From a virus (taxonomy: Duplodnaviria; Caudoviricetes), in the IMG/VR virus record IMGVR_UViG_3300004369_000015, positions 1 through 62,151 of that record: a DNA stretch of 62,151 nucleotides; one strand, given 5' to 3'. Positions 76 through 62,151 of this stretch are shown in pieces (the stretch's first letter is position 1; every line of letters starts with the position of its first letter). Both the position numbers and the translations under genes were made by a program. Under the pieces are notes generated by a model. That model was given only the letters and a program-made list of their open reading frames with translations. It was not told the origin of the DNA and made no database searches.

Positions 76-99
76 ACCTTTAACACCAAAGAGAAATGA
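75..99 (+). repeat. Cassette-junction repeat AACCTTTAACACCAAAGAGAAATGA (copy 4)
   Basis: Identical to 61461-61485; encodes TFNTKEK-stop overlapping the next ATG. Confidence 0.9.
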
Positions 100-230: not shown

Positions 231-259
231 AGGGAGTGTCCTCAAAGACACTCCCTTTT
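231..259. terminator. Hairpin built on the 16-bp palindrome; probable terminator between the convergent arms
   Basis: AGGGAGTGTC-CTCAAA-GACACTCCCT followed by a T-run. Confidence 0.75.
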
Positions 260-265
260 CCTTTA

Positions 266-3200
266 TTATTTTTTCTTCTTCAGAAGTTTGGGGTCGATAG
301 CCATACTCTCTACCTCTCCTTTCTTACTCTCCTTTTCAGGTTCAGGTGACATACCACTTGCGGGTCTATAAGATTTAGATATACCAAGTATGTCGTAGAT
401 TGCTGCCTCTTGAAACTCATCGTCTCCGAATCCAAGGTTGTACAACCCAATGAATGGGTCTAACTGTGCTCCCATTGCAGCCTCAAGTATTGGTCGTGTC
501 GTACCCCACAATACCCCATCTTTCTCTACCTGTTTCTTTACCTTGTATCCTACCGATGAGAATGGGTTCACTATAGAAGAGACAAACTTCTTTTTCTTTT
601 TATACTCATCCCCGCTAATACCCGCTATAACTCTACCGCCAAGGTCGTACTCTTCAGCAACTACACCAAGCATTGGCAACTGATATAGTAGGTTCATACC
701 AATCATTGCTTCAGCAATTTTACCCATAGCATCCTCCCTGTCGTCATCATCTCCTAATAGTTTTCCTATGTTAGAAGTAGCAACGAACAGTGCGTTAGCG
801 ATAGCAAGGTTTAGATAGAACTCTCTGATATCTTTTGAGCGAGGAACCTTTCCTTCTGAAATATCCCTACCCATATTGGTAGCAGATGACATCACTTTGT
901 TTATCTGTAGGAACACTGTGCTTCCAAACATTGTGAATGTTCTAACGAGGTAGTTCTTACTCATCTGAAGAGGAGTCTTCTCTGTTCCACGTCTTGACTG
1001 CTGAGTAGCATTGTAGTTATTGAATGCTTCTGCTGCCTCCTGTGGATTCATTCCGTTCTTGATGTTCCTGTTGTAGTTAATCATATACCCCATAACACCG
1101 AGCACGTCTCCGATAACCGTGGGCGCAGCACCCGCCTGTTGAAGTGCACGTCTTGCACGTGCCACTTTAGTATGGCTCTTACTCAGTGGCTTAAATGCTT
1201 TACCTCCTGATTCCAATCCATACACGTCACCCTCAATACCCTGCCTGATACGCATACGAAGTGTTGGTGACATCTCCATCGCCTTATTGATAGCACCGTC
1301 TTTGCCAATCAAATCCTTAGCCATTGACCCATACGTTGCAGCCATATCAACCATAAACATAACAGGGTCGATTGCTTTCTTCACAACGTTAGGAACTTTA
1401 GAGTCCTTAGGGAAGTAACTATAATCAGCATATGCGTTAACAAATGATGTCGCCTGTTTAGCAATCTGAATGACCTTGAATGCCAAAGCAAAACCCGTGA
1501 ACAGTTGTTGGAACTTAGACATCACCTTATTGTCCTGACCCATAGAAGTCCCGGCATTTGGATTGATATCCATATTGACCGTCTGCATCATAGACTTATG
1601 GATACCCAACTCACTAAGTAGTAGGTTCACTGCAGGGATTTTAAAGAATGCATTAATATCCTTCGTGGCCTCAGCATAAGCAACATACTTATCCATTGAC
1701 TGCAGGTGGTTTTCTAACACACCCGAGAAGTCAAAGTCAGATATACTAATATCCTTTTTGGTATCGGTTCTTTCCTTGAATGCAGGTGATACCTCAGCGT
1801 TAAAGATTCCATTGAAGTCGCCCTCCTTTAGGAGTTCGTTGTTATCCTGTGGGCTGATAGTTGATGTTGGGAAATAGTTCTGTACGTAACCAAGGTTCAC
1901 ATCATTGACGCTTGAGTATACAGAGTTTACTTGTTCGTAGTATTCGTTACTCAAGAACTCTACGACCCCATCAACAAATGATACCACCTCAGGCCCGAGG
2001 TTAGTTTTGATTTCCTCTAAGACCTCATCTGAAACCCCTTGGTTGCGCAACTTGTCACGCTGAAAATCATTCTGACTCAGAGCGTATATACGCATCTGTT
2101 GGTCTTTACTTACCTGAGCGTTAAAGGTTGCACCCGTCTTGGTGTTCTTTAATTTAAGAGACATCAATGGGTTACCATCCGAGTAGATGGTATTCATAAC
2201 CTGCTTATACCCCTTGTCAAACCCTGCAGCCCTTGCGATTGAATCTATAGCCTCAATAGTTCTGAATCTATTTTCGTTATAGATATCATTGGCACGGTTC
2301 AGTCTTCTATATACATTGTCCGTAAACGCAGTCTTGCTTCTTGATACTCTATCTACAAGGTTGGTAAGCGTACCAAGGTGTCTCAACATATTCTTAGACG
2401 TAGCGATAACCTGTGAAGCACTGCTATACTTGAAGTTCTTTAACCACTCCTTTATAGCCTGTGGATACTTCCTGTCTCTGAATAGTTTTCTTATTTCGTT
2501 CTTTCTCTCTGAGACTTGGTCGGTGTTTAACAACTCACCCATTTCATCGAACAACTCAGGATTTGTCTCTGCAATCTGAGCAGTCACCTCATCCTCAACC
2601 ATCTTATTACGAGCAGCACGTGCTGCTCTTCTTGACTTCAGGTTGTTTATGGATTCTCTCCTTGTGTCTTTGATGACACTGAACAATTCGTTGGTCTCTT
2701 CCAAAGACATATTCTGAAGGTCGGCAAACGTATCAAACGCCAACGCCAAGTTCATAAGAGCAGTCTCTTTAGATGTCAACTTCTCCCCTCTTGCTTGTTT
2801 AGCGAATGCCTCATCAACCTCAGGTCTTGCAATCTCTTCTGCGATTTTAGCAAGAGCATCTACATCATCCTTGATAATCGCATTGAGTACCTGCTTAGCA
2901 TTAGAGAAGAACGACTGACCCGCAGCGTCCAATCCTGCAGACCTACGTTTACCTGATTGAGTCATAGCAGGTTTTGCTTTCTTGTTTACGAGTTCAGCAA
3001 TCTTCTTTACGACAGACTTCTTCATCGTTGCTCTCTGCTGCTCGATAACATTCATCACATTCTCCATCTGTGCCTCAAGGTCTTCTACAGTTTTTACTTT
3101 ACTTACCGCAGAAATCAATGCATTGATTTTCCCTTGAGTATACTCATTAGATTTAGGGAGGCTTCTTCTGATGAAGTTCTTTAACTGCAACTGAGCATCT

Positions 3201-6200
3201 GCTAAGTTGTTTTCCGCAACCCTTCTCTGTCTTAGGTTATTCCTAATGGCAGCCATCTCTCTGCTGACACTTGTGTTTGCTCTGATACCCAACTGTCTAT
3301 CAAACGCATTCAGTAGTTCCATTTGAACTTGGTCTGTCTGCTCTTGGAATGTTGGGTGAGCCTTCATAAGTTCAACTGCCTTGGCACGGATATCAGAGAA
3401 TGTCTTGGTTCTTGTTGTTCCCCTTCCACCACGTGGGCCTTCGGTAGAGAACCTATCCAACTTCTCTTTTACGTCCTTATACATTTGAAGCGCAGACTGT
3501 ACTCCACCTGCTACACGTTCAAATTCTTTTGGCATTGTAGTAAGCAGGTCAACCTTAACCTCTAATACAGAATCAATATCAGCCTTCTTGTATCCACGAT
3601 TTTTTAGCACCTGTCTTATAGATGCATCTGAGAATCCCTTACTCCGTGCAGCAGATACCACTGCCCCTACAGTAGGGGATGATGATGTCATAAGTTGTAG
3701 TTGGTTATCAAGGTTTCTAACCTCAGCCCCAACAAACAACTCGTTCTCTGACATAAGGTCTACAACAACGCCATTAAGGAACTCATCAAGTGACAGGTTC
3801 TGAATCTGCTCGGCAGACATATTAGAGATACCTGTTAGTTTCTTTACGAACTCAAACAGTTCGTTCAACCAATTCTTGAAATTCTTTTTCTGTGCTGCAG
3901 TGGCGAATGATTCACCCTTATCTCCAATGGCAGTTGCCAATGCTTCCTCAAGGATGTAGTTACGGATGTCCTCTTCGGTAGCACCCGCCTTCTCCATCTC
4001 TTTAATAACCCTTTTATAGTCTGTACTGTTCTCTACATCGGTAACATAGTCAGTACCCTCCACCAAAGCCAACCCCTTCTTATATGTTTCAGGGGACATC
4101 TCTTTGGCAACGTTCATCCAAATGTGTCCGAACTCGTGAACGGGTGTATTAAAGTTTTCTAACCCGGGGTTGAGGTACAACTTACCATCAACCACTGCAC
4201 CGTAAACCTTTTGGCTTTTAGTAACCAACTGACGAGCATTAAGGTTTTCCATTAAAGCATCGAACTCCTCCTGTGTAGCCACAACGTCAACACTTGGGAA
4301 TGCTTTTGTCAGTCTATTTAAAAACTGTTGATACTGAGTAGGTGTAGGAGGAGTAACTTTCTTGGCTACAGATGCACTACGTTGAGCCGTATACATTTCG
4401 TCAGAACGAATCTCTGCTGAACTCTGTTTTCTCATCCCACCCTTGCCATCTTTCTTTTTAAGCAAACCCGCATACTTAGCATTCATTGTGTTCAGTGCTT
4501 TCTTAGATACGTTCCACATAGGAACTGTATCTTCCATCATAGCGACTGCTCTACCTCTAATGTATACAGGATAGTTCTCGTGTGTTCTAATTCCCTCTGC
4601 TTCCTGTTGGTCTCGAGTCATAATGGCCTTGTCAATATCAGCCTCTGACTTAATCAAGTTGCCGTCAGCGTCTGTGATTTCAAGAACCATAGTCATAGCA
4701 CCCATAGGTAGGTCACGTGTAAACTGCTCTGAAACAGAAGACCTTACCGACTGCTGAGTTATACCATTGTCCTGAAGGGTCATCCCTAACTGAGTAGTAG
4801 CCTTGACGTTTGCAGAAGGAAGAACGGCCTGAGTAATCTTTGCTCGTTGGGCTACGTTCAGTGATTTAAAAATATCAATGAATGATTGTAGGTCTGTTGT
4901 TTGACCAATGGCGTTATGGATAATTTTTGTATCCTTGTCTCCGAACTTTCTACCCAAGATGTAATCCTTCATCTGATTGTATACATCCTGTTGGTTGTCA
5001 AGTTTGTTTAGTTTGTCTGTAAACTCTATTGGTGTGGCAATATTAGAGTCTACTGAAGACGGAGCCATATTGTATACCACACTATAGTCTCCCTTTGTAA
5101 AGCCTCTGATAATTCGCTGCGCAGCCTCAACATCCATAGATGCCCAAGCAACCTTACCAAAGGTATCGTCCATTAGTGGGAAGAATGGGCCACCCATTCT
5201 CTTGCTATCTACCTTCAGTTGGTCAGCCATAACATAGTTAACGACCTTACCAACTAAGTCTTTTACTGACATCTTTGGAACCTTGTTTGCCAACTCAGTA
5301 TTCTCTGTTACTGTGATTGGAATGGTTTCCATAGTAGGCTCTGATACAACCTCAGTCTCCTCCACAATATCGGGCTGAACTTCCTCCATCAACTTACGTG
5401 ATGACTCAGCGAGTTTTTGCTTACGTGCTGATGTTTCAGAGTCTGTATTTAGTTGGAACATCTCAGGGTTTGGTGATTCTCTATTAGCCTCACCGAGCAT
5501 ATTCTCAAGGTCTTGTACCTCGTCATCTAAGAACTGCTGCTCATCGGGTGTCCTTGAAGACACTTCACCCAATCCCTCTATGTCAAGGACTATACCCCCT
5601 TCTTCTTCCGTCCCTTGCTCAGGCGTGACGGTAGTCGTTTCGGTAGTGATTGTGGATTCGGTGTCTCCTTGTCCCACTTCTCGCAGTTCCACCGGCTGCG
5701 GTTGTCTTGTGCTTGTGCGTAACACGCCCGTCTCTGTGCTTGGCTCTTGAATGGCATCTTCTTCTTGTTCTGTTGGTAATGTGCCAACGGGTGCTTGTCT
5801 CTTTGGTGCTTTCTTTAGGCTTTGAATTCCTACTAACTCAATGTTGACACGCTCACCCTCAGGCAATAGTTGTTTTGTTTCCGATATCTTGGCAATCTCT
5901 TCATTGATTGCAGCAATTTTACTTTTGAATACCTCTCTTCTATTCTGAGTAGAGGTCAATTCTTCTCTTGCGTTTAACAGTTCTACTAAGCGAGACTCCA
6001 CATCGGTGTTCTCATTTCTGCTAAGTAGCGATGGACTAACGCCCATAAGGTCTCTCGCCTCACGTCTAAGTCCTACGTTCTTTTGGATGCGTTGGTTTTC
6101 CTCAGGAGTAATCTTCCCAAGTCTTTCCATATTGTTTGCCCAAGAACTAATCTTCTCGTCTGATGCTATCTCGTTTACGATACCATCCGCAGTAGAGAAC

Positions 6201-8596
6201 TCTGCTGCAAGTTTCTCGTAGTTTACGTTTCTAATATCACGCATCATATTAACTGCAGCGTTTGGAGCGTTGTTACCCAATCCACCAATTGCCTCAGCAA
6301 ATATTTCTTTCGCATCAATCTCCTGACCCGCAACTACCTGCGCCATATATTCACCAAATGCTTCAGCAGCAGGGTCAAACACAACACGTTCTCCAACCGT
6401 AGCAGCAGCCTTTGCAGTTTTTGATGCAATGCTTCCTACCTTAAATACTCTACCTGCAAGTCCACCTGACACATAGTCTACGACTGCGATAGGGATACCA
6501 CGCTTCAACCCAATCTCTTTACCCTCGGCCCACACCTGCTCATCCTGCAGGGCAGCAGCCAAACTCAACGGGTCATCGGGGTTGTATCCTTGGTTGTCTA
6601 CCGCATCTAATACTGCGTTGGTGTATTCCAATGCTAAAGACGTGGCAGCAAAACCTGTTCTCATACCATAACTCAATCCTGCTAATGCTCCACCGGGAAC
6701 GGTTACCTCAGCGAAGGGGCCACCCGCTAACCCCGCCACCGCACCTGCTCCTGCTCCCGTAGCAGCCGAACCTGAGATTAACTTATATCCATATGGAAGC
6801 ATTTGGCTAAGCGACTCAGCAACAAAGGCAGTTGACAATTCGAATGGGTCATCAAGGAATACATCAAACGCCTCAGAGAATCCTCTTGCTGATGCGTATC
6901 TATATTGCGCTCTACCCTGCTCGTCTGTACGAGCCTCTTGCATATACTGTATAATCTTTAATGCAACCTCTTGAACCTCGGCATCATCACCAACATCTTT
7001 TAGACCAAGTGCCAATGCTAAGATTTGTTCAGCCCCCTTACCTCTCGCCAATCCTGAAGACCAACTCTGAGAAACTGCATCCCAATTTTCTATGAATTCA
7101 CCACGCAGGTTCTTGTCAAACTTCTCAGTGAAGAATGTATTTGCCATCTCGTAGTTGGATGCAGCGTATTGCTTCATAGCATCCAAGTCCCTTTTGTTTT
7201 GTAAGTAAAGACTAACAAGACTTTTCTGCTCAGTAGTTGTGGGGACGTATTGGCTTAGTTCTTCAAGGGTAATCCCCAACTTCTCATTAACATCTTTTGC
7301 TAAAATTTCTTCTGCTTTTTTGGCTGCTGAGTTAGCCTGTACTGCTTGTGCTGATTTCTGCTGAAACTCCTTGTCCAAAAACAAATCGAAGTCTTCACGT
7401 GCAGTAGCGATATCATCATCCGATATCTTAGAGTATAACTCGTTGTACTCCTCTTCCCTTCTTGCCAATATATCATCGGAGTCATTTCTTCTTCTTCCGT
7501 TGACATACAGGTGGGCGTATTTCTTTTGGTCTTTTTCAGATAGGTCTTTCAGATATAGCATAGACCTGTTGTTCAAGAAGTCTATCTCATCTCTTGTTTC
7601 AGCAAATGCATCTATATCCCTCTTAGCCTGTGCATAGTCTAAGCCACGGTCTTTATAGAATGCGAAACCAACTGCATCGATGTTGTTTATATTCTTCCAA
7701 CTACCCTCTGCAAATGCATTAGCCTTATCGGGGCTATCAAACTCAAATATCTCACCACGTAGAAACGCTTCGTTGTACGCATCCATACCTGACAACTCCA
7801 TCCAATCTTGAGGGTCGCTTGTGTAGTTTGCTCCTTTAGGGAACAGGGTTGGGAATACAACATTCTTCCCGTCAATGATTGCCGATGTTAGTTTAACCGT
7901 TGATACAGAACCGTCAGGGTTCATTACGGGTTTATCTCTTAGCCCTCTCACCTGAAGAGCATACTCTGCCTCGCTTACCTCTTGTGGATTAGCAGTTTTT
8001 AGTGGTGCTTGTTTCTTGCCTCGCTTCTTTTCTTCGGCTTGAACTGCTGCCAATGCAGCAGCATCCTCATTAATATTTTGGCTTGTTGTACGTGCATCAG
8101 CAAAACTTTGACGTAAGGCTTGGTCTACCATCCCCTGCTCGGGATACATACCAAGGCTATTCATAGGGTTTCTATACCCTAACTCACGTGTGTCTTGACC
8201 TATTACCTGTCTGTGGCTGCCATCAGGACTCCACAGTATCTCCCCCGGCTTTGGAGTATAGAACTCAAACTCAGGCTGCTCAGTAGTTGATTGCTCCGAA
8301 GAACCATCTGCCGATGGTAATTCCGTACCATCTTTTTTTTTTACAACAGGCTCTTGCTGAACAGGCTCTTGCTGAACAGGCTCTTGCTGAGTAGCATTAG
8401 CATCACCAAAAAATTCGGGGAACTTTGGATTTATAATACTGTAGTCATAGTTATATTGTTCGGCAGTTGTGACATAGTCTTTCAACAACTGAACGTCATA
8501 TCCTGACAACTCAGGGAACTTGCTCATTACTACTCCCCAATTATAGTTGTGGGCCTGAGCAGTTGCAATTAGGTCTTTTAAAATCTGTTCGTCCAT
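266..8596 (-). CDS. Giant (2776 aa) internal virion/ejection polyvalent protein with zincin metallopeptidase domain
   Basis: HEFGH motif (nt 4124-4138) with downstream EEALA; hydrophobic G/A-rich segments; last gene of the structural operon. Confidence 0.7.
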   Translation of the reverse strand: MDEQILKDLIATAQAHNYNWGVVMSKFPELSGYDVQLLKDYVTTAEQYNYDYSIINPKFPEFFGDANATQQEPVQQEPVQQEPVVKKKDGTELPSADGSSEQSTTEQPEFEFYTPKPGEILWSPDGSHRQVIGQDTRELGYRNPMNSLGMYPEQGMVDQALRQSFADARTTSQNINEDAAALAAVQAEEKKRGKKQAPLKTANPQEVSEAEYALQVRGLRDKPVMNPDGSVSTVKLTSAIIDGKNVVFPTLFPKGANYTSDPQDWMELSGMDAYNEAFLRGEIFEFDSPDKANAFAEGSWKNINNIDAVGFAFYKDRGLDYAQAKRDIDAFAETRDEIDFLNNRSMLYLKDLSEKDQKKYAHLYVNGRRRNDSDDILARREEEYNELYSKISDDDIATAREDFDLFLDKEFQQKSAQAVQANSAAKKAEEILAKDVNEKLGITLEELSQYVPTTTEQKSLVSLYLQNKRDLDAMKQYAASNYEMANTFFTEKFDKNLRGEFIENWDAVSQSWSSGLARGKGAEQILALALGLKDVGDDAEVQEVALKIIQYMQEARTDEQGRAQYRYASARGFSEAFDVFLDDPFELSTAFVAESLSQMLPYGYKLISGSAATGAGAGAVAGLAGGPFAEVTVPGGALAGLSYGMRTGFAATSLALEYTNAVLDAVDNQGYNPDDPLSLAAALQDEQVWAEGKEIGLKRGIPIAVVDYVSGGLAGRVFKVGSIASKTAKAAATVGERVVFDPAAEAFGEYMAQVVAGQEIDAKEIFAEAIGGLGNNAPNAAVNMMRDIRNVNYEKLAAEFSTADGIVNEIASDEKISSWANNMERLGKITPEENQRIQKNVGLRREARDLMGVSPSLLSRNENTDVESRLVELLNAREELTSTQNRREVFKSKIAAINEEIAKISETKQLLPEGERVNIELVGIQSLKKAPKRQAPVGTLPTEQEEDAIQEPSTETGVLRTSTRQPQPVELREVGQGDTESTITTETTTVTPEQGTEEEGGIVLDIEGLGEVSSRTPDEQQFLDDEVQDLENMLGEANRESPNPEMFQLNTDSETSARKQKLAESSRKLMEEVQPDIVEETEVVSEPTMETIPITVTENTELANKVPKMSVKDLVGKVVNYVMADQLKVDSKRMGGPFFPLMDDTFGKVAWASMDVEAAQRIIRGFTKGDYSVVYNMAPSSVDSNIATPIEFTDKLNKLDNQQDVYNQMKDYILGRKFGDKDTKIIHNAIGQTTDLQSFIDIFKSLNVAQRAKITQAVLPSANVKATTQLGMTLQDNGITQQSVRSSVSEQFTRDLPMGAMTMVLEITDADGNLIKSEADIDKAIMTRDQQEAEGIRTHENYPVYIRGRAVAMMEDTVPMWNVSKKALNTMNAKYAGLLKKKDGKGGMRKQSSAEIRSDEMYTAQRSASVAKKVTPPTPTQYQQFLNRLTKAFPSVDVVATQEEFDALMENLNARQLVTKSQKVYGAVVDGKLYLNPGLENFNTPVHEFGHIWMNVAKEMSPETYKKGLALVEGTDYVTDVENSTDYKRVIKEMEKAGATEEDIRNYILEEALATAIGDKGESFATAAQKKNFKNWLNELFEFVKKLTGISNMSAEQIQNLSLDEFLNGVVVDLMSENELFVGAEVRNLDNQLQLMTSSSPTVGAVVSAARSKGFSDASIRQVLKNRGYKKADIDSVLEVKVDLLTTMPKEFERVAGGVQSALQMYKDVKEKLDRFSTEGPRGGRGTTRTKTFSDIRAKAVELMKAHPTFQEQTDQVQMELLNAFDRQLGIRANTSVSREMAAIRNNLRQRRVAENNLADAQLQLKNFIRRSLPKSNEYTQGKINALISAVSKVKTVEDLEAQMENVMNVIEQQRATMKKSVVKKIAELVNKKAKPAMTQSGKRRSAGLDAAGQSFFSNAKQVLNAIIKDDVDALAKIAEEIARPEVDEAFAKQARGEKLTSKETALMNLALAFDTFADLQNMSLEETNELFSVIKDTRRESINNLKSRRAARAARNKMVEDEVTAQIAETNPELFDEMGELLNTDQVSERKNEIRKLFRDRKYPQAIKEWLKNFKYSSASQVIATSKNMLRHLGTLTNLVDRVSRSKTAFTDNVYRRLNRANDIYNENRFRTIEAIDSIARAAGFDKGYKQVMNTIYSDGNPLMSLKLKNTKTGATFNAQVSKDQQMRIYALSQNDFQRDKLRNQGVSDEVLEEIKTNLGPEVVSFVDGVVEFLSNEYYEQVNSVYSSVNDVNLGYVQNYFPTSTISPQDNNELLKEGDFNGIFNAEVSPAFKERTDTKKDISISDFDFSGVLENHLQSMDKYVAYAEATKDINAFFKIPAVNLLLSELGIHKSMMQTVNMDINPNAGTSMGQDNKVMSKFQQLFTGFALAFKVIQIAKQATSFVNAYADYSYFPKDSKVPNVVKKAIDPVMFMVDMAATYGSMAKDLIGKDGAINKAMEMSPTLRMRIRQGIEGDVYGLESGGKAFKPLSKSHTKVARARRALQQAGAAPTVIGDVLGVMGYMINYNRNIKNGMNPQEAAEAFNNYNATQQSRRGTEKTPLQMSKNYLVRTFTMFGSTVFLQINKVMSSATNMGRDISEGKVPRSKDIREFYLNLAIANALFVATSNIGKLLGDDDDREDAMGKIAEAMIGMNLLYQLPMLGVVAEEYDLGGRVIAGISGDEYKKKKKFVSSIVNPFSSVGYKVKKQVEKDGVLWGTTRPILEAAMGAQLDPFIGLYNLGFGDDEFQEAAIYDILGISKSYRPASGMSPEPEKESKKGEVESMAIDPKLLKKKK
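2664..2679. repeat. 16-bp palindrome GTGTC-TTTGAT-GACAC (intragenic)
   Basis: Read directly; one spacer base deviates from consensus. Confidence 0.8.
5548..5563. repeat. 16-bp palindrome GTGTC-CTTGAA-GACAC (intragenic)
   Basis: Read directly. Confidence 0.9.
5590..5757 (-). CDS. Overprinted small basic protein (55 aa, MPFKSQAQRRACYA...WDKETP) in an alternative frame of the giant gene
   Basis: ATG with A-rich leader; resembles the MPFKSxAQRR small phage proteins I recall; lies in an acidic linker of the host frame. Confidence 0.65.
   Translation of the reverse strand: MPFKSQAQRRACYAQAQDNRSRWNCEKWDKETPNPQSLPKRLPSRLSKGRKKKGV
8346..8390. repeat. 3 x 15-bp tandem repeat encoding QQEPV
   Basis: ACAGGCTCTTGCTGA three times. 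Confidence 0.9.
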
Positions 8597-21160: not shown

Positions 21161-21194
21161 AAAAAAGGGAGAGTGTCTTCAAAGACACTCCCCC
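21161..21194 (-). terminator. Capsid-gene terminator containing the 16-bp palindrome (21173-21188)
   Basis: GGGAGAGTGTC-TTCAAA-GACACTCCCC with a T-run on the minus strand. Confidence 0.75.
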
Positions 21195-41097: not shown

Positions 41098-41438
41098 CTT
41101 TTTACTGAACTAACTCTTTTACCCATTCCTACTCTTGACTTCTCCGCTTTCTTCTTAGCCAACTGAGAAGAACTCATTTCGGATTTGGTTACGGGTGTCT
41201 TTGAAGACACTCTCTTTGATGGACGACAATATTCATTCTTACCACCTGAGCCACACGGTTTACCCGTGCGAGTGTCAACCCACTTCTCGTCACCCCATCT
41301 TTTCAGTGCGGTTCCCTTAGCGGATTTAGTAACCATCCCCTTAGACTTACGACACTTTGCTATAGCCTGTGACGCTCGAGCAGAAGGGAATACCTTATAC
41401 TGAGACTTGACTTTTGTATAACAAGCATCCTTAGCCAT
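41094..41438 (-). CDS. Basic protein (DACYTKVK...PSA.AS...KCRK...LKRW.EKW)
   Basis: ORF track; contains the palindrome at 41195-41210. Confidence 0.75.
   Translation of the reverse strand: MAKDACYTKVKSQYKVFPSARASQAIAKCRKSKGMVTKSAKGTALKRWGDEKWVDTRTGKPCGSGGKNEYCRPSKRVSSKTPVTKSEMSSSQLAKKKAEKSRVGMGKRVSSVKR
41195..41210. repeat. 16-bp palindrome GTGTC-TTTGAA-GACAC
   Basis: Read directly. Confidence 0.9.
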
Positions 41439-42749: not shown

Positions 42750-42929
42750 TTAATCCTCGGTATGCCCATCATCGAATGGCTCGAGGTATTGGTGTACAAT
42801 CACCAAATCAACGAAACACTTATCATCGTTGCAGGAGTAGTTTGATACTATGCCTATGGCTTCACCGAATTCATCATAGTCTTGGTCTCCTCCCCATACC
42901 AAGTTTTTATTACAGTTAGGACACTTCAT
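42750..42929 (-). CDS. Small Zn-ribbon protein (59 aa, MKCPNCNKNLVWGGDQD...SCNDDKC)
   Basis: Translated by hand; lies between groEL and groES. Confidence 0.7.
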   Translation of the reverse strand: MKCPNCNKNLVWGGDQDYDEFGEAIGIVSNYSCNDDKCFVDLVIVHQYLEPFDDGHTED

Positions 42930-44511
42930 AACTACGGGCCATTGTAATGATTGCGTTGGTCGACAAGATGGTAACCGCTACAGACATCGCATTCTGTAGT
43001 GCACTGCGTGTAACCTTGAGTGGGTCGATGACACCCATATCGAACATATTATTGTACTCACCTGTCTTGGCGTTGTACCCATAGTTGTAGTCACTGTACT
43101 TCAACTTCTCGAAATGGGCGTTGTCAAGGTTAGCACCTGCATTGACTTGAATCTGTACCATAGCAGCACGAAGTGCTTGGTACATAATCTTGCCAACTAC
43201 ACTATGGTCATCCTCATAATTAAGTGACTCCTTAAACAATGCGAGGCCTCCCCCGGGAAGTATACCCTCTTCGAGTGCCGAGCGAACTGCGCACACCGCA
43301 TCATCGACACGGTCATAGAGTTCCTTCTGCTCGAGGTCTGTGTTACCACCAACGTAGATAACACCGATACCGCCTGTGAGGGAGGCAATTCTTGATAGAA
43401 TAAAATCTTTGTCTGCTTTCTTTATTGCGTTAGCGTGGGCCTTCTTGAGTTGAGCAACTCTCTCATCAACCCCCTCGTCTACTACGTCTGAGTCTTTGAT
43501 GATGACGGTGTTGTCTCTACCTACCACTACACGCTTGGCGAAGCCGAGGTCGTGGAATGAAATAAGGCTGAGGTCATCGCCTGTCTTTTCTGAGTAGTAT
43601 ACCGCACCTACTGAAAGTGCAATATCCTGCATTAATTCGTGCTGCTTGTAGCCGAACGAAGGTGGTGAGATTACACAGACCTTTAGGTCTCGTTTCAATT
43701 TGTTCGCTGCCAAGGTATTGATGACGTTGTTGGAACACGGTGCAATGATTAGGAGTTTGCAGTTCGTATTGATAATTGGTTTCAATACGTTCTCGATTTG
43801 CAGCAGGTTGGATATCTCTGCATCCGATACCAATATATGAGTGTCCTCAAAGACACACTCATCCTTCTCGTGGTTGTTGATGAACAGATGTGATTGGTAT
43901 CCTCGCTCCACCTTAATACCATTAGTGGTCTCGTAGTAGGTCTCTGCCGTTTGCGATTTGTCCACGGTAACAATACCATTAATACCAATAGACTTGTATA
44001 CACTCGCAATGATATTGCCGATGGTTGGGTCGTTGTTTGCGGAGATGGTAGCCACGTCCTTGAGCCTACCCTTTGTCACCTTGCGTGACTTGCGCTTGAG
44101 GCTCTCAATAACCTTCTCGGTCTCCTTGACTAACTCTCGCAAAACTTCCGTCTTATTCTCGTCTTTTTCTATAAGGGTCATCCCTGCTTTGACGATAGCC
44201 TCTGTAAGTACAATGGCCGTAGTAGTACCGTCACCTGCTGACGCAGCCGTTCTGTCTGCTGCCTCCTTCATCATCCGAACCGCAAGGTTCTCGACAGGGT
44301 CGATGAGGTCGACTGCTTTTGCAACCGTCACTCCATCCTTGGTTACCGTGATGCCGTGCGTGTGATGCTCCGACTCTATCAGTACCGTGTTTCCCATAGG
44401 GCCAAGCGTAGACTTAACTGCACTCGAAATCTGCTCAATGCCGTTGATTAACTTCTCTCTACCCTCTTGACCGAAATTTAAATTCTTTGGATTGTATCCG
44501 ATTTCACTCAT
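42916..44511 (-). CDS. groEL: Chaperonin GroEL
   Basis: STLGPMG, VTKDGVTVAK, AGDGTTTA, EEGILPGGG, GVIDP; start moved to MSEIG. Confidence 0.95.
   Translation of the reverse strand: MSEIGYNPKNLNFGQEGREKLINGIEQISSAVKSTLGPMGNTVLIESEHHTHGITVTKDGVTVAKAVDLIDPVENLAVRMMKEAADRTAASAGDGTTTAIVLTEAIVKAGMTLIEKDENKTEVLRELVKETEKVIESLKRKSRKVTKGRLKDVATISANNDPTIGNIIASVYKSIGINGIVTVDKSQTAETYYETTNGIKVERGYQSHLFINNHEKDECVFEDTHILVSDAEISNLLQIENVLKPIINTNCKLLIIAPCSNNVINTLAANKLKRDLKVCVISPPSFGYKQHELMQDIALSVGAVYYSEKTGDDLSLISFHDLGFAKRVVVGRDNTVIIKDSDVVDEGVDERVAQLKKAHANAIKKADKDFILSRIASLTGGIGVIYVGGNTDLEQKELYDRVDDAVCAVRSALEEGILPGGGLALFKESLNYEDDHSVVGKIMYQALRAAMVQIQVNAGANLDNAHFEKLKYSDYNYGYNAKTGEYNNMFDMGVIDPLKVTRSALQNAMSVAVTILSTNAIITMARSYEVS
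43841..43856. repeat. 16-bp palindrome GTGTC-CTCAAA-GACAC (inside groEL)
   Basis: Read directly. Confidence 0.9.
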
Positions 44512-44528
44512 AACTATTAGATTTTGTA

Positions 44529-44536
44529 CAAAGATA
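44529..44536 (-). promoter_or_regulatory. -7 promoter element TATCTTTG for groEL
   Basis: TAnnTTTG 17 nt upstream of the ATG. Confidence 0.6.
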
Positions 44537-44607
44537 CACAACTTTTTATATGTCTATGGGTATATTTCCGTATATTTGGTATGCATTTATATGCGAACGA
44601 GTATAAT

Positions 44608-46800: not shown

Positions 46801-46824
46801 GGGAGTGTCCTCAAAGACACTCCC
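46801..46824. repeat. Extended palindrome GGGAGTGTC-CTCAAA-GACACTCCC
   Basis: Identical to 232-255. Confidence 0.92.
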
Positions 46825-48452: not shown

Positions 48453-48465
48453 GTAAAACTCGGGG

Positions 48466-48481
48466 GTGTCCTCAAGGACAC
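48466..48481. repeat. 16-bp palindrome GTGTC-CTCAAG-GACAC
   Basis: Read directly; stem extended by flanking G/C. Confidence 0.92.
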
Positions 48482-48501
48482 TCCCATAATCAAATCAACA
48501 A

Positions 48502-49780: not shown

Positions 49781-49814
49781 TACAAATAATCAACAATTAA
49801 ATAACCCGAGGTCG

Positions 49815-49830
49815 GTGTCTTCAAAGACAC
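49815..49830. repeat. 16-bp palindrome GTGTC-TTCAAA-GACAC in a 5' leader
   Basis: Read directly; lies between promoter and ATG. Confidence 0.92.
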
Positions 49831-49851
49831 TCCTCACAAATCAAATCAACT

Positions 49852-50925
49852 ATGTGTGTTATCATCATCAAACAAAAAGACAATGTAATCTCACGTGAGG
49901 TTGCGAAGACATCATCACAAATCAATCCTCACGGATTGGGAATCGTGTGGCTCGATACATTCGAGGTCGAGTATCACAAATCATCAGAGTACAAGCGACT
50001 CTTAACTGAGCGTCCATTCATTGCTCACTTCCGATATGCAACTGTCGGTAAGATTGGCAGAGAGAACACTCATCCATTCGTATGCGGTAGCAACAAGAAT
50101 GAACTGCTAATGATGAACGGAACTATCAAGGGCCTTGGCAACGACAAGGTGTGCGATAGCAAAGCATTGGCAATTAAGATTGGCAACACTCCACGTCACA
50201 CTTGGAAGTCACAACTCGAGAAGTATGAGTGTCGTTTCGTTACTATCAACAAGCGTAATCGCACATTCCAAATCTACAATCGAGACCTGTACACCTATCG
50301 TGATGGCGTGTGGTATTCAAAAGCAAACGTACTGCAAGACAACGTGGTAGCAGTGTATGGTACGTTGAAGAAAGGGTTCACAAACTATTACCACTACCTA
50401 ACCGACTCAAAGTTTGTCGGCTCGGGTACTACAAAAGATAAGTATCCCCTCTTGGTTGAGGGGTTACCTTATCTCGTAGACAAGAAAGGTATCGGACACA
50501 ACGTGAACGTTGACGTGTTCAAGGTTGATGACGCAACACTGCGTGACTTGGATTTACTCGAGGGTCATCCAAAATGGTACGTGCGCAGACAGATACCAAT
50601 CAAGATGAAGAACGGAGTGACTATTCCTTGTTGGATTTACTTTAATCCTATGCAGATAACCTCAGCGTCAGTATTCCACAAGTCATACGAGCGTACATTT
50701 AAATTGACAGACAAGGACTACGATGACAACTTGTGGTCAAACGATTGGGCTGAAGATTGTGGATGTGCGCAGTACGAACTCTTCGATACGGACTTTGAAT
50801 ACACGACAGATAAATACTGCATCGATTGTTTCCACGACTTGGCGCACGATGGATTCCACAACTACAACTGCAGTGGGTGTGGTAAATGGTATAGCGAAAC
50901 TGAAGTAGAACAATTAAACGACTAA
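49852..50925 (+). CDS. Class II glutamine amidotransferase fused to gamma-glutamylcyclotransferase, with C-terminal Zn ribbon
   Basis: Cys2, NPHGLG, HFRYAT, NTHPF, NG, DS; then VYGTLKKG and LDLLEG; CxxC..CxxC. Confidence 0.85.
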   Translation: MCVIIIKQKDNVISREVAKTSSQINPHGLGIVWLDTFEVEYHKSSEYKRLLTERPFIAHFRYATVGKIGRENTHPFVCGSNKNELLMMNGTIKGLGNDKVCDSKALAIKIGNTPRHTWKSQLEKYECRFVTINKRNRTFQIYNRDLYTYRDGVWYSKANVLQDNVVAVYGTLKKGFTNYYHYLTDSKFVGSGTTKDKYPLLVEGLPYLVDKKGIGHNVNVDVFKVDDATLRDLDLLEGHPKWYVRRQIPIKMKNGVTIPCWIYFNPMQITSASVFHKSYERTFKLTDKDYDDNLWSNDWAEDCGCAQYELFDTDFEYTTDKYCIDCFHDLAHDGFHNYNCSGCGKWYSETEVEQLND

Positions 50926-53203: not shown

Positions 53204-53860
53204 ATGGCAAATCAAAAATCCGTATTTGAAACGTTGAGCGCAATCAACGTGAACGACAAAGTCGAAAAGAAAAACAACCTTACGTACCTGTCTTGGGCTT
53301 GGGCGTGGGGTGAAGTTAAGAAGAACTATCCTGATGCAACCTACGAGGTAATCAACGACCCTGCGTCAGGCACTCCTTACTTCTTTGACCAAGCACTTGG
53401 CTACTTGGTAATGACATCAGTAACTATCCAAGGTCAGACACTACCAATGTGGTTGCCTGTTATGGATGGTGCGAACAATGCAATGAAGCACGTTCCTTCT
53501 GAGATTGTAACTCGCTATGGCTCTAAGCCTGTGGCTGCTGCTACAATGTTCGATATCAACAAGACGTTGATGCGTTGTCTCACTAAGAACCTTGCGATGT
53601 TTGGTCTTGGTCACTACATCTATGCAGGTGATGACCTACCCGAGGTAGGCGAGGCAGTTCAGGTAACTCCCGCAAAGAAAACTCAACAAGAGGAAGCGTC
53701 ACTCAAGCCACTAAAGGTAGGCGATGAGAATTGGGGGCCGATTGAGAAGTGGGTTATCGAGAACAAAGAGATTGGCATCAAGCGTATCGTTGATACAATC
53801 GAGCGTAAGTACAAGGTGACTACTACGGTTAAGAACAAGATTCAAACTCTAATCAAGTAA
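53204..53860 (+). CDS. Sak3/DUF1071 Rad52-like single-strand annealing protein
   Basis: LTYLSWAWAW, MWLPVMD, INKTLMRCLTKNLAMFGLG. Confidence 0.85.
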   Translation: MANQKSVFETLSAINVNDKVEKKNNLTYLSWAWAWGEVKKNYPDATYEVINDPASGTPYFFDQALGYLVMTSVTIQGQTLPMWLPVMDGANNAMKHVPSEIVTRYGSKPVAAATMFDINKTLMRCLTKNLAMFGLGHYIYAGDDLPEVGEAVQVTPAKKTQQEEASLKPLKVGDENWGPIEKWVIENKEIGIKRIVDTIERKYKVTTTVKNKIQTLIK

Positions 53861-53863
53861 GTT

Positions 53864-54598
53864 ATGGAAGACGTAATCAAAATGCTCCAAGATGATGAGC
53901 ACTACTATGGTACGTTTGGTAATCAGTACCTAAGCAACTCAGACATCTCTGCACTCTTGAACAATCCAAAGATGTTCCGTGTGCCCGAGTCGGGTGACAA
54001 CCTTGCGTATGCAAAGGGACGTTACTTCCACCAACTAATCCTCGAGCCTGAGAAGGCAGAGCAAACTCAGTTCGTTGATGTATCAACTCGCACAACTAAA
54101 GCGTACAAGCAGTACATCGATGACAACGGGATTGACTTCTGCCTGTTGGAGAAAGAGGGAGAAGAGATTCGCCAACTCGTTACGGGTATGCTGAATAACT
54201 TTGACTTCCACGATAACATCAGAGCGACAGGTGTTCAGTACGAAGTACCATCTATCAAAGAGATTGAAGGTGTAATGTGGAAGGGTAAGGCCGACATCAT
54301 TCATCCTGAAATGATTATCGACCTGAAGACAACGGGTAACATCAATGACTTCAAGTGGTCTGCACGTAAGTACAACTACGATAGTCAGTGCTATATCTAC
54401 CAACAACTATTCGGTAAGCCATTAGTATTCTATGTGGTTGACAAGTCGACAGGTATGTTGGGTATGTTTAAACCCACTGAAGAATTTGTTCAGCGTGGAC
54501 ACGAGAAAGTAAAACGTGCCGTTGAGGTATACCATACTTTCTTTGGAGAAGCACCGACTAAAGATGTCAGGTCATACTACATAGATGAATCTCTTTAA
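53864..54598 (+). CDS. RecE/exonuclease VIII-like PD-(D/E)XK exonuclease
   Basis: LSNS, G..FH..ILEP, KGKAD, IDLKTT, Y..Q..IY. Confidence 0.85.
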   Translation: MEDVIKMLQDDEHYYGTFGNQYLSNSDISALLNNPKMFRVPESGDNLAYAKGRYFHQLILEPEKAEQTQFVDVSTRTTKAYKQYIDDNGIDFCLLEKEGEEIRQLVTGMLNNFDFHDNIRATGVQYEVPSIKEIEGVMWKGKADIIHPEMIIDLKTTGNINDFKWSARKYNYDSQCYIYQQLFGKPLVFYVVDKSTGMLGMFKPTEEFVQRGHEKVKRAVEVYHTFFGEAPTKDVRSYYIDESL

Positions 54599-60201: not shown

Positions 60202-60733
60202 TTTTTTACTTAAAACACCAACCGATGTGCGAGTTCTCATCAGGTTGATTAATGAAGTCTTGAACGTAGACATATTGGACAAGACACGTGAGCGTGAGCA
60301 CGTTAATGCACGTATTATCTTTTCATCTATATGCCGTGAGCGTGGGTATAGTCTGACAAAGATTGGTTCCTTTCTTGGTAAAGACCACTCATCAATCGTT
60401 CACTACTTGAAGAATGTTGATTGGTATTTAAAGACCGACAAGACATTCGCAAGTAACTATGGGTTAATCACTTCGAACTACTACGAGGGTTACGACCCCG
60501 TGTATGAGATGTCGTGCGATGAGATTAAAAAAGAATATATTGTTTTGAAAAATAAATTTAATTCGTTAAGTTTGGAATTAGAAGGTCTAAAAACTGACCA
60601 ACAAAAGTTCAAAGCACAGGAAGAAAGACTCTCACCGTTGTATAGAATGATAACAGAACGCACACTAAAAGGTTCAGAGAACTTTATAGAAAGGAGACTC
60701 AATCATTTCTTTAATGGTGTTTATGATGAATAA
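60191..60733 (+). CDS. Second DnaA domain IV-like DNA-binding protein, with coiled coil
   Basis: TREREHVNAR...SLTKIGSFLGKDHSSIVH. Confidence 0.75.
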   Translation: MKSNFLLKTPTDVRVLIRLINEVLNVDILDKTREREHVNARIIFSSICRERGYSLTKIGSFLGKDHSSIVHYLKNVDWYLKTDKTFASNYGLITSNYYEGYDPVYEMSCDEIKKEYIVLKNKFNSLSLELEGLKTDQQKFKAQEERLSPLYRMITERTLKGSENFIERRLNHFFNGVYDE

Positions 60734-60738
60734 ATAAA

Positions 60739-60930
60739 ATGACTAAGCCATCAGCGTTCGAGAATGAAAGATTGAATCACATCAACAACCTGATGGACAA
60801 TATCAACGACTCTACGTCTGATATATATGAGCACTTAGTTGATAGAGAGTTCGATAAACTTCTTGTCTGCTTGAATGATTTAATATCACAACTCGAGGAT
60901 ATAAAAAATTCACTACAAGATGAGCCATAA
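60739..60930 (+). CDS. Small hypothetical protein
   Basis: ORF track. Confidence 0.6.
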   Translation: MTKPSAFENERLNHINNLMDNINDSTSDIYEHLVDREFDKLLVCLNDLISQLEDIKNSLQDEP

Positions 60931-61327
60931 GAAGTGCACGAATTGTGGTGTAGAAAAACCTGAATCAGAATACTATCTTACAGGTAAATACACACAGGCA
61001 GTTAGGAATATACGAAGAGCAAAGTGCAAGAAATGTGTAAACGATGTCAAGGACAAAAGACGTTGGGATATACGTGATAAGGTTAGGGAACACAAGCGGG
61101 GGCTTAGTTGCGAAACCTGTGGCTATTCCAAGAAGACTCACCCTGAAACGTTTTCAGATAGGGCCTTGGAGTTCCACCACCCCAACGATGATAAGGACTT
61201 CAGTGTAGGTGACGCAATAACAAATGGAGTTTCATACGAGAAGATAATGTCTGAGATGAAGAAGTGTGTAGTCCTATGCTCTCGATGCCACGCAGAAGAA
61301 CACGACAAAAAAAATGGAAGAAAATAA
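60920..61327 (+). CDS. HNH endonuclease
   Basis: CxxC pairs, LEFHH, KCVVLCSRCH..H. Confidence 0.85.
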   Translation: MSHKKCTNCGVEKPESEYYLTGKYTQAVRNIRRAKCKKCVNDVKDKRRWDIRDKVREHKRGLSCETCGYSKKTHPETFSDRALEFHHPNDDKDFSVGDAITNGVSYEKIMSEMKKCVVLCSRCHAEEHDKKNGRK

Positions 61328-61409
61328 CAAACAAACCCTATTAGAGTTTATATTTGCTTTTCTGCTCAATGCAGGAATCTTATATATGTTGATTAAGATT
61401 TTCGGTTAA
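61314..61409 (+). CDS. 31-aa single-TM peptide
   Basis: Translated by hand; the stop codon lies in the island flanking repeat. Confidence 0.5.
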   Translation: MEENNKQTLLEFIFAFLLNAGILYMLIKIFG

Positions 61410-61410
61410 G

Positions 61411-61485
61411 TTGGATGGTTGGCACAATCAATGGGCTGACGCAAATGACTACTACAACGAAACCTTTAACACCAAAGAGAAATGA
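61411..61485 (+). pseudogene. 3' gene remnant LDGWHNQWADANDYYNETFNTKEK
   Basis: No ATG in frame (stop at 61390); YYNETF is an ending I recall from small flavobacterial phage proteins. Confidence 0.55.
61461..61485 (+). repeat. Cassette-junction repeat (copy 1)
   Basis: AACCTTTAACACCAAAGAGAAATGA. Confidence 0.9.
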
Positions 61486-61700
61486 AAAAGAAACTAAAAT
61501 CATTAGATGAACACAATTCAAATTCTTGGAGCAATTATTCTTCAATGTTTGAAAACTCACCAAAACCAAACGGAATTGCTTGCCCAAAGTGTGGTGAGGA
61601 ATTGATGGATAGTCAACCTATGGCGACATTAACATCCCATCCACCAAAGAAAGACATACATTGTCCTTCTTGTAATTATCGTGGATATAGAATTGCTTAA
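61482..61700 (+). CDS. Zn-ribbon protein (72 aa)
   Basis: CPKC...CPSC; ATG supplied by the repeat. Confidence 0.7.
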   Translation: MKKKLKSLDEHNSNSWSNYSSMFENSPKPNGIACPKCGEELMDSQPMATLTSHPPKKDIHCPSCNYRGYRIA

Positions 61701-61716
61701 CACCAAAGAGAAATGA
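61697..61716 (+). repeat. Cassette-junction repeat (copy 2)
   Basis: TTAACACCAAAGAGAAATGA. Confidence 0.9.
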
Positions 61717-61850
61717 AAAAGTTCAAATGGGGCAGAATTATGACATCAAACCAGATTGGATTGATGGTTGCTTGGGGAACAAGTGTTATACCAAACAGAA
61801 AGTGCATCTGTATTGAGGTTCCTTTTCTTATTATACAGATTTACCTTTAA
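61713..61850 (+). CDS. 45-aa hypothetical protein
   Basis: Translated by hand; start and stop both lie in repeats. Confidence 0.6.
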   Translation: MKKFKWGRIMTSNQIGLMVAWGTSVIPNRKCICIEVPFLIIQIYL

Positions 61851-61866
61851 TACCAAAGAGAAGTAA
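61843..61866 (+). repeat. Cassette-junction repeat (copy 3, variant)
   Basis: ACCTTTAATACCAAAGAGAAGTAA. Confidence 0.85.
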
Positions 61867-61872
61867 TAATAT

Positions 61873-62000
61873 AGTCAGGTGGCGGAATTGGATAGACGCT
61901 AAGAGTTGGATTTAGGTCGCTAACATTCCCGTTCGAGTCGGGCAAAGTGGGCCAACTAGGAGAAACTAAGACCATACAGGTTCGAATCCTGTCCTGACTA
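61873..62000 (+). ncRNA. 128-nt tRNA-like RNA with Leu-type D arm and an expanded region replacing the anticodon arm
   Basis: AGTCAGG/CCTGACT acceptor; TGGCGGAATTGGATAGACGC; ACAGG-TTCGAAT-CCTGT. Confidence 0.75.
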
Positions 62001-62016
62001 CTAAAACAAAATAGAA

Positions 62017-62151
62017 ATGAAAGTCTTTTTCCATAAAACAAAAAGCCTACCGACAGCAACAACTATTCAAGAAAAGAACAAATGGGAGTTGCAGTTGCTT
62101 GTAGATGCAATCGTTCAGAAAGCGGATGCCCTTGGGTTTACCGTGAACATA
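62017..62151 (+). CDS. 52-aa protein spanning the circular join (stop at 97-99), ending TFNTKEK
   Basis: Open frame MKVFFHK...GFTVNITFNTKEK across the overlap. Confidence 0.65.
   Translation, partial: MKVFFHKTKSLPTATTIQEKNKWELQLLVDAIVQKADALGFTVNI

Follow-up and report, generated by a model that had tools for sequence, protein, structure and literature searches.

The stretch of DNA analyzed here, called the window in the following, is the viral record IMGVR_UViG_3300004369_000015 at its full length of 62,151 nucleotides (nt). Its bases 1-75 are identical to bases 62077-62151, it is described in IMG/VR as a record with direct terminal repeats, and its CheckV completeness is 100. The window is thus a circular phage genome of 62,076 bp, and features at its first bases are contiguous with an array of very small genes at its far end. 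This array is punctuated by a short repeated element, which is the subject of this study. The element reads AACC-TTTAACACCAAAGAGAAATGA, i.e., a core of 21 nt (TTTAACACCAAAGAGAAATGA, the 21-mer) that is extended by AACC to the 25-mer AACCTTTAACACCAAAGAGAAATGA. The 21-mer was found at 79-99 and 61465-61485 without mismatches, at 61696-61716 with one mismatch, and at 61846-61866 with three mismatches. All copies are on the plus strand, and 100 shuffled sequences yielded no match. Exact copies of the 25-mer start at 75 and 61461, copies with four mismatches each at 61692 and 61842, and a copy with seven mismatches at 61996. The scan with the 25-mer detected nothing comparable elsewhere in the genome.

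The leftmost part of the array is a gene remnant of 24 codons (61408-61485, plus strand; LDGWHNQWADANDYYNETFNTKEK followed by a stop codon), of which the last seven codons and the stop codon lie inside the first element copy. It is 97-99% identical over 81-88 nt to the loci L117, L042 and L008 of other genomes and 94% identical to L029, and its full-length form of 69 amino acids (aa) is present in L042 (14320-14529) and in L029 (2090-2299). The first element copy (61461-61485, plus strand) is an exact 25-mer. Its TGA ends the remnant and its ATG opens cassette 1, a zinc-ribbon-like open reading frame (ORF) of 72 aa (61482-61700, plus strand), which ends at a TAA inside the second copy. This ORF contains two CxxC pairs, its matches to zinc-ribbon families of Pfam are weak and all below the curated cut-offs, it matches phrog_30869 with an E-value of 2.5e-7, and its nucleotide identity to L084 is 95%. 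The second copy (61692-61716, plus strand) has four mismatches to the 25-mer and has lost the AACC. It is followed by cassette 2, an ORF of 45 aa (61713-61850, plus strand; 88.6% nucleotide identity to L084), which ends at a TAA inside the third copy and for which searches of Pfam and PHROG returned no family.

The third copy (61842-61866, plus strand) is degenerate, with four mismatches to the 25-mer. It has no ATG, but reads AAGTAA, and it precedes an RNA gene rather than an ORF. Cassette 3 is this tRNA-like RNA (61873-62000, plus strand), which has acceptor, D and T arms and a central expansion of 63 nt. The tRNA model of Rfam (RF00005) matches with 31.2 bits at a gathering threshold of 29, and the 63 nt stand in the anticodon region, where the model has 18 nt. 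The gene was not called by ARAGORN, and its predicted fold is no better than that of shuffled sequences. Odd tRNA-like genes also occur at the same locus of the nearest record, MW202828.1 (L128, 523-630 and 637-697), the primase of which has 74% amino-acid identity, and ARAGORN calls none of them. The expansion that replaces the anticodon arm has 63 nt in the window and 46 nt in MW202828.1, and the acceptor stems differ by paired changes; the second gene of MW202828.1 has only 61 nt, and the anticodon arm is absent altogether.

The fifth copy (61996-62020, plus strand), which is degenerate with 7 of 25 mismatches, provides the ATG of cassette 4, an ORF of 52 aa that runs on the plus strand from 62017 to 62151 and across the circular junction to base 99, where it ends with TFNTKEK. 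The copy at the end of the array (75-99, plus strand) is again an exact 25-mer. Its TGA ends the 52-aa ORF and its ATG opens an N-terminal fragment, of about 45 codons, of a YqaJ-type exonuclease gene (96-232, plus strand). Residues 13-44 of this ORF match an exonuclease family of PHROG (E-value 3e-5), and the first 150 nt after the element (75-224) are 84% identical to L117 and L008. The matched gene of L117, aligned from its 5' end, encodes 204 aa, and its protein belongs to the Pfam family YqaJ (E-value 2e-11). The homology to the full-length gene stops at about base 224, just ahead of a palindromic hairpin of 22 nt (GGAGTGTCCTCAAAGACACTCC, 233-254), which stands where the plus-strand and minus-strand blocks of genes meet and delimits the array on the right. 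The array cuts a gene at both outer ends, the 69-aa gene at 61408 on the left and the YqaJ gene before the hairpin on the right, and the block from 61408 across the junction to about 225 looks like an acquired array.

An earlier interpretation made from the sequence alone (the sequence-only reading) had described four element copies, which delimit a zinc ribbon, a 45-aa ORF, a tRNA-like RNA with a 52-aa ORF, and a YqaJ fragment. The cargo agrees with this description. The four copies were recovered as 21-mers, and the fifth, degenerate copy at 61996 had been overlooked. The assigned stop codons were also correct, i.e., TAA at 61700 and 61850 and TGA after TFNTKEK at 61485 and 99, but the frame ending at 61485 is only the 24-codon remnant. 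The same reading had expected the repeat to occur outside of this locus with a variable gene order between the copies, and the viral database search, the flank clustering and the comparison of cassette orders described below bore this out on both points.

The exact 21-mer was found in at least 119 stretches of IMG/VR, which have about 99 different dataset prefixes by hand count, and in seven contigs of metagenome-assembled genomes (MAGs), four of which are binned as Flavobacteriaceae, Flavobacteriales or Saprospiraceae. In a collection of 50,697 GenBank phage records, blastn with the array gave no match and a 35-nt query around the element gave two chance-level matches only, so that, at the sensitivity of these searches, this collection contains no cultured carrier. 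All carriers are metagenomic assemblies, none of them is cultured, and the comparisons rest on assembled contigs. Neither the element sequence nor FNTKEK was found in about 8.4 million searchable papers and preprints (supplementary files were outside the scope of this search), and among the papers listed by a concept search no relevant account of repeats in phages of Flavobacterium or Cellulophaga turned up.

For a family-wide comparison, 127 sources with a total of 1.13 Mb were used, and a copy was defined as having at most five mismatches to the 25-mer. This set contains 263 copies, 106 of them exact, while six control 25-mers gave 0, 0, 0, 0, 0 and 1 copies. No locus has copies on both strands, and at least two copies are present in 69 of the 127 sources. 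Neighbouring copies are spaced by a median of 218 bp (n = 136; interquartile range 171-287 bp). The five whole carrier records, with 59-212 kb, have one to four copies each, always in one cluster. The carriers share few genes, with amino-acid identities of 25-60%.

The ATG is in the same register in 253 of the 263 copies, and the ATGA start that the sequence-only reading had ascribed to the repeat was thus verified for the family, with the window copy at 61842 as a deviating case. Downstream ORFs that terminate within the locus (233) have a median length of 62 aa, and 87% of them have at least 30 codons, compared with 40% of all same-strand ATGs. On the upstream side, the longest frame ends at the TGA of ATGA in 122 copies, mostly with the tail TFNTKEK, and at the TAA in 59 copies. 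An upstream frame of at least 30 codons is lacking in 67 copies, in three copies the upstream frame is the third frame, which is left open by the element, and twelve copies represent other cases. The arithmetic of a stop in two frames and a start therefore holds family-wide.

The information content, calculated from 142 non-redundant contexts, is about 0.3 bit ahead of the AACC, exceeds 1 bit at its first A, and drops from 1.7 to 0.4 bit directly past the last A of ATGA. As the copies were found by similarity to the consensus, the values are too high within the element. The weakest positions of the core, 9 and 12, vary across all frame classes, and thus the constraint is on the nucleotides and not on an encoded peptide. 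Copies without an upstream ORF are conserved as strongly as the others. On these two grounds FNTKEK was rejected as a selected C-terminal peptide tag. Variants of the AACC (positions 0-3) are shared by copies that have the same upstream flank, with agreement in 42 of 81 informative pairs, and variants at positions 9-24 follow neither flank (5-9% agreement). The divergence of the core is 4-8% versus 9-21% in the coding flanks, a difference that is biased by the way in which the copies were found.

The element is asymmetric and A-rich, it contains no inverted repeats, and as an RNA with its flanks it forms no hairpin (-0.5 kcal/mol, z -0.7). An AGGAG or another Shine-Dalgarno sequence is absent from it. 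In the region 60700-62151, a scan with the sigma-70 consensus yielded one weak site outside of the canonical copies, fewer than in shuffled sequences, and no terminator-like site was found at any element copy. The reach of the promoter scan is limited, because the host type probably uses other promoter signals. Among 290 homologous cassette starts, 235 have the element with at most five mismatches, and about 15 have forms with indels or decay, according to our own reading of the listing. Upstream of first-in-array copies, one or two boxes of the type CAAAGTGTAA(A/G)AT were seen at a distance of about 10-45 nt in ten loci (L011, L036, L044, L054, L063, L066, L069, L079, L109 and L110), and in L055, L059, L086 and L098 two (T/G)(A/G)GGCGCA boxes stand upstream of the first copy. 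Both types of boxes are possible promoters or operators of the arrays.

The flanks of 120 nt on both sides of 228 copies were clustered to analyze which sequences are joined by the element. Of the 38 recurrent downstream flanks, 35 are joined to at least two different upstream flanks, and conversely 37 of 40 recurrent upstream flanks are joined to at least two downstream flanks. In 133 pairs with the same downstream and different upstream flanks the similarity stops at the 5' edge of the element, and in 127 converse pairs it stops at the 3' edge. Element-free ORF starts of the same loci served as control junctions, and pairs that share the downstream flank were scored for sharing of the upstream flank. 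The upstream flank was also shared in 18 of 150 pairs at element junctions (12%), versus 491 of 1330 pairs for control ORFs of at least 80 aa (37%) and 560 of 1752 pairs for control ORFs of 40-120 aa (32%); the contrast is approximate, because the controls include spurious ORFs and core genes.

The 263 downstream units fall into 160 clusters, and single comparisons exemplify the differences in content and order. In L039 two cassettes have the order C11-C14 and in L118 the order C14-C11, with flanks that are 91-92% identical and a C14 that is 100% identical over 305 nt. In L084 an additional cassette of 46 aa is inserted between the zinc-ribbon and the 45-aa cassettes, which in the window are direct neighbours. 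The window, L008 and L117 have the left remnant and the right YqaJ gene in common, but the cassettes between them are different. Cassettes can also consist of tRNA genes, and tRNA-Arg or clusters of tRNA-Arg, -Leu and -Met end flush with the element in L006, L071 and L103.

The cargo flanked by the element consists of ORFans in variable regions, and insertions, deletions and replacements end in the element. Representatives of ten cassette clusters had no Pfam match above the curated cut-offs, and seven of these representatives as well as three window ORFs, namely 61482-61700, 61713-61850 and, apart from the exonuclease match given above, the fragment at 96, had no informative PHROG match. The commonest cassette family, to which the 24-codon remnant of the window belongs, comprises 22 of the 263 units and encodes proteins of about 70-80 aa that start with MKTP.QEL and end with ..W....YY(N/E)ETFNTKEK. 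Its members are found in L040 (1000-1227, minus strand), L042 (14320-14529), L029 (1863-2299) and 19 more units, they have no Pfam or PHROG match, and those in L029 are tandem paralogues. The element may have arisen from a junction between tandem paralogues of this family.

Public sequencing runs were also compared with the array region. Some 41-44% of the sequence words of 60900-62151 are present in about 15 runs, which belong to at least a dozen studies. Contigs of four runs were aligned to the region. The block 61465-62003 is near-identical in three of them (X3, X4 and X18), and the HNH endonuclease side (60900-61437) is uncovered in X4, X18 and the RNA run X19. The summed depth at the bin of the element is 6020 in X4 and 15056 in X18, versus 27-48 for the cassettes, and the sequences that adjoin the element on either side are many and different. 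The inner order of the window (61467-62001) recurs with two differences in one contig of 751 nt from another study. RNA run X19 has contigs over 61739-62130 and one across the element, which indicates presence in an RNA library, but could derive from DNA. Of the 40 whole IMG/VR contigs, 15 end at most 200 nt from a copy, with 2.2 expected. Contig joints were inspected as candidates for circles or deletions, but their sides have only 18-32 nt, the value of 32 being reached solely by a joint that goes back 42, and they give no evidence either way. The joint of this type that has AAG between its sides is best read as another tRNA adjoining the element.

Taken together, the element is a discrete, oriented, in-register junction at which the cassette content differs. 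The interpretation that we consider probable is that a large pool of mini-gene and tRNA cassettes in aquatic phages with Bacteroidota-type hosts has this stop-leader-start junction in common, and that the junction also provides the portable homology by which cassettes are exchanged. The arrays would be read as polycistronic early messages. Each copy would halt the incoming frame in two of three frames, either with the TGA after FNTKEK or with the TAA, would offer an unstructured A-rich leader that has no Shine-Dalgarno sequence, and would place the ATG such that it overlaps the TGA. By this combination of stop, leader and overlapping start any joined cassette would be translatable at once, and thus we infer that the element drives translation. 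At the level of DNA, every boundary bears the same 21-nt core, and this holds for many divergent phages. If two copies, from one genome or from two genomes in the same infected cell, took part in homology-dependent recombination or template switching, whole cassettes would be deleted, inserted, replaced or reordered and the genes left unbroken.

A dedicated recombinase would not be needed for such an exchange. Tyrosine recombinases (PF00589) were absent in six of six records, i.e., the window and all five other carriers, with positive controls, and a serine recombinase was not found in the window. Exchange by short homology fits the absence of a hairpin and of a tyrosine recombinase. The Sak-type single-strand annealing protein of the window (53204-53860, plus strand; PF06378, E-value 9e-52) and the adjoining PD-(D/E)XK exonuclease (53864-54598, plus strand; PF12684, E-value 3e-18) are candidates for its machinery. 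Circumstantial support for this route also comes from other genomes, where arrays abut YqaJ in L117 and L008 and the annealing protein gene ERF in L029, and a homologue of the PD-(D/E)XK exonuclease is present inside the available flanks of 43 of 126 loci.

Several observations weigh against this interpretation. About 40 of the 290 homologous cassette starts have an unrelated leader, and thus cassettes can be expressed without the element. The small number of one to four copies per genome, in one cluster, shows that the element is not a general translation signal of its carriers. Pairing with the 16S rRNA of a Flavobacteriales MAG was tried and rejected, because the best duplex of -13.0 kcal/mol was equalled by 59% of 300 shuffled sequences, and the 3' tail was no better. 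A Pfam search for single-strand annealing proteins in the five other whole carriers found Sak in one of five, and ERF and RecT in none of five, so that a phage annealing protein is not a general requirement. Some breakpoints are not at elements, as both outer ends of the window array cut genes. The control contrast is approximate, as described above. No recombination intermediate, circle or within-population deletion was seen in the assembled contigs, in which joints with short sides are unreliable. Lastly, a repeat of 25-40 nt could be mis-joined in short-read assemblies, a point that is taken up below.

A more far-reaching proposal is that the 21-nt core goes beyond passive homology and is recognized by a conserved factor of the host or the phage, and that the arrays form a community-wide, recombinase-free 'phage integron'. 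Such a factor might act on a ribosome-recruiting or reinitiation signal for the non-Shine-Dalgarno ribosomes of Bacteroidota, or it might be a cassette-capturing activity. If this were true, hundreds of unrelated aquatic phages with genomes of 59-212 kb would use one standard plug to trade early mini-genes and tRNAs that work without further adaptation. This extension is regarded as doubtful.

The comparison with integrons had already been made in the sequence-only reading. Integrons depend on a tyrosine recombinase, IntI, and on attC sites whose folded form is an imperfect hairpin. The logic of the arrays is similar, with promoterless single-gene cassettes in one orientation, a recurring site and a highly variable content. 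However, the tyrosine recombinase is absent in all six records and the element does not fold, and, in addition, attC sites have no translation signals for the cassettes, while the element itself is a stop and start signal. The term therefore stands as an analogy for the array logic, and the integrase and folded attC sites that define integrons were looked for and not found. Boundary or linker sequences of lambdoid phages are short conserved sequences at gene borders that have been proposed to guide homologous exchange of modules. They are weakly conserved and lie between functional modules of related temperate phages. The element, in contrast, is an exact 21-mer that delimits mini-genes across unrelated genomes of the lytic type.

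The PeSL (promoter-early stem-loop) cassettes of T4-type phages are the closest known system in their way of working. These are conserved regulatory sequences that flank small ORFans in hyperplastic regions, end with the downstream start codon, and allow homologous exchange to insert, delete or replace cassettes without an integrase (PMC2839356, PMC4122927). The authors likewise draw the analogy to integrons, and mini-circles were shown by experiment (PMC2839356, PMC4122927). PeSLs are conserved over about 100 bp and contain a strong sigma-70-like promoter, a terminator stem-loop and a Shine-Dalgarno sequence (PMC2839356, PMC4122927). The likeness is that both flank ORFans and that indels and replacements end in the element. 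The element differs in that it has 21-25 nt, is unstructured and contains no sigma-70 promoter, terminator or Shine-Dalgarno sequence. It also lies partly inside the upstream coding frame and supplies the stop codon of that frame, it is identical across phages with 25-60% protein identity, and its 1-8 copies are in one cluster, while PeSLs occur in many regions. The element is not a member of the PeSLs, because these are promoter-plus-stem-loop units of about 100 bp, and it would instead be an analogue of a different design.

Start-associated sequences (SAS) of Cluster K mycobacteriophages have 13 bp of the type GGGATAGGAGCCC with an AGGAG core and stand 3-7 bp before the start codon; 93 sites are given for six phages of one cluster, in the right half of each genome, and a role in translation is suspected (PMC3203893). 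SAS resemble the element in that they are asymmetric, have one orientation, lie directly upstream of the ATG of non-structural genes from different families, and sometimes contain the upstream stop codon. The element differs by its sequence, by including the ATG, by the lack of a Shine-Dalgarno sequence, by its confinement to one small array per genome, and by marking mosaic breakpoints; a role as recombination joint is not described for SAS in the passages concerned.

The competing explanation that survives best is that the element is mainly an operator or 5' leader for one trans-acting factor, e.g., an RNase, a small RNA, or a repressor or activator of translation, which controls a small set of early mini-genes together, and that the shuffling merely results from the usual mosaicism of phages at the borders of genes. 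It agrees with the strong conservation of the 21-nt core at the level of nucleotides whatever the upstream frame is, with the strict location of the copies on the gene strand with the ATG in register, and with core variants that follow neither flank, as would be the case for short-lived deleterious changes. The authors who described the SAS, a closely parallel case, interpreted these sequences in this way (PMC3203893). A phage factor common to carriers of 59-212 kb that share few genes is unlikely, however, and a host factor is possible. Furthermore, each genome has only one to four copies, confined to one cluster, a candidate for the factor was not found, and neither the breakpoints exactly at the edges nor the shuffling above the controls is explained. 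An operator is thus considered an unlikely main function of the element.

A much smaller chance is given to the element being the target of a dedicated DNA enzyme, such as a homing-type endonuclease or an unrecognised site-specific recombinase, that actively moves the cassettes. An HNH endonuclease gene (60920-61327, plus strand) indeed ends about 130 nt upstream of the first copy in the window, an endonuclease VII or HNH-like gene of L084 lies about 1 kb upstream of the array, and exact conservation over 21 nt would suit the recognition site of a protein. Yet tblastn with the HNH protein of the window detected no homologue in 126 loci at an E-value of 1e-5 or better. The locus of MW202828.1 has an order like that of the window, with a 136-aa ORF, a short zinc-ribbon ORF, the tRNA-like genes and a giant minus-strand gene, and its 136-aa ORF (1-411) stands at the position of the HNH gene, but no element copy was found in its intergenic stretch 330-800. 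The results on recombinases, the lack of inverted repeats or a hairpin, and the cost that a nuclease would incur by cutting several sites in its own genome also argue against such an enzyme.

It is likewise improbable that the element is the promoter of a phage-specific or injected RNA polymerase, from which near-leaderless early messages would start only a few bases ahead of the ATG. In length, asymmetry and strand bias the element is similar to promoters of single-subunit phage polymerases. The copies are grouped in one short region beside an ORF of 2776 aa, and in some arrays the first copy comes after other conserved motifs or the 3' end of a tRNA, which would suit the start of a message at the element. 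However, the upstream ORF ends inside the element in 181 of the 263 copies, which fits polycistronic messages with read-through, and a contig of 149 nt from an RNA library spans upstream sequence, element and cassette, although this is weak because it could be DNA. An identical promoter across such divergent phages would also be unusual, and no polymerase family and no DFDxD motif were found in the giant ORFs. A virion RNA polymerase of the crAss type was considered as the reader of the element and rejected, because the ORFs of 2776 aa and 1602 aa have no DFDxD motif and no polymerase match in Pfam or PHROG. For the phage phi14:2, early transcripts without a common upstream motif are described (10.1101/2020.03.07.982082).

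Lastly, it is hardly credible that the shuffling is an artefact of short-read assemblers that mis-join at a repeat of 25-40 nt, although contigs often end at the element and Logan contigs break there. The k-mers commonly used in the final step of an assembly exceed the element in length, both flanks are the same in 18 pairs from different loci, and some of the junctions were seen in more than one dataset. The inner order of the window was found again in X4 and X18, and the use of frames, with three upstream ORFs in the open frame, together with the register of the ATG are regularities of biology that would not result from chimeras.

The element is of interest in several respects. Few parts of phage genomes change as fast and are as poorly understood as the early mini-genes, which by general expectation include functions in host takeover and counter-defence. 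An exact, searchable 21-mer at their borders is a direct handle to catalogue the mini-gene pool of aquatic Bacteroidota phages, and with it the exchange of genes among phages that are not related becomes measurable. The concept of modular shuffling guided by conserved regulatory joints, for which T4-type phages have been the main example, is extended to another host group and a very different design. Should the leader turn out to start translation efficiently in non-Shine-Dalgarno hosts, gene expression in Flavobacteriia would gain a useful tool as well.

The remainder of the window genome is organized in two blocks. The minus-strand block (266-44541) encodes the portal protein, the large terminase, tail fibres, other virion proteins and a GroEL-like chaperonin. 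The plus-strand block starts at about 46 kb and encodes a primase/helicase, an SNF2-type helicase, a VRR-NUC nuclease, DnaA-like HTH proteins, the HNH endonuclease, and Sak with the adjoining exonuclease. The closest cultured relatives of the primase protein are from phages of Flavobacterium, Nonlabens, Polaribacter, Cellulophaga, Maribacter and Tenacibaculum. The leaders at the gene starts of the window are rich in A/T and lack a Shine-Dalgarno sequence, and boxes that resemble TAnnTTTG stand ahead of several minus-strand genes. The host is probably a member of the Bacteroidota, likely of the Flavobacteriia type.

Some further features of the genome were noted. The 2776-aa ORF (266-8596, minus strand) has no Pfam or PHROG match and no DFDxD motif, and at the syntenic position MW202828.1 has an ORF of 3859 aa with a name that looks spurious. 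The GroEL-like chaperonin (42916-44541, minus strand) matches phrog_5725 with an E-value of 1.6e-131. An ORF of 357 aa (49852-50925, plus strand) contains a region similar to gamma-glutamyl cyclotransferases (phrog_2520, E-value 5e-21) and, from this similarity, is a possible auxiliary metabolic gene. In addition, the genome contains a second repeat family, the palindromic 22-nt hairpin GGAGTGTCYTCAAAGACACTCC, with seven sites versus none expected (233-254, 21170-21191, 41192-41213, 43838-43859, 46802-46823, 48463-48484 and 49812-49833); those that were inspected are intergenic. On the plus strand the hairpins are often followed by a AAATCAAATCAA leader just ahead of a start codon, with eight matches versus 1.0 expected, and hairpin and leader may be the terminator-plus-leader unit of this genome's own.

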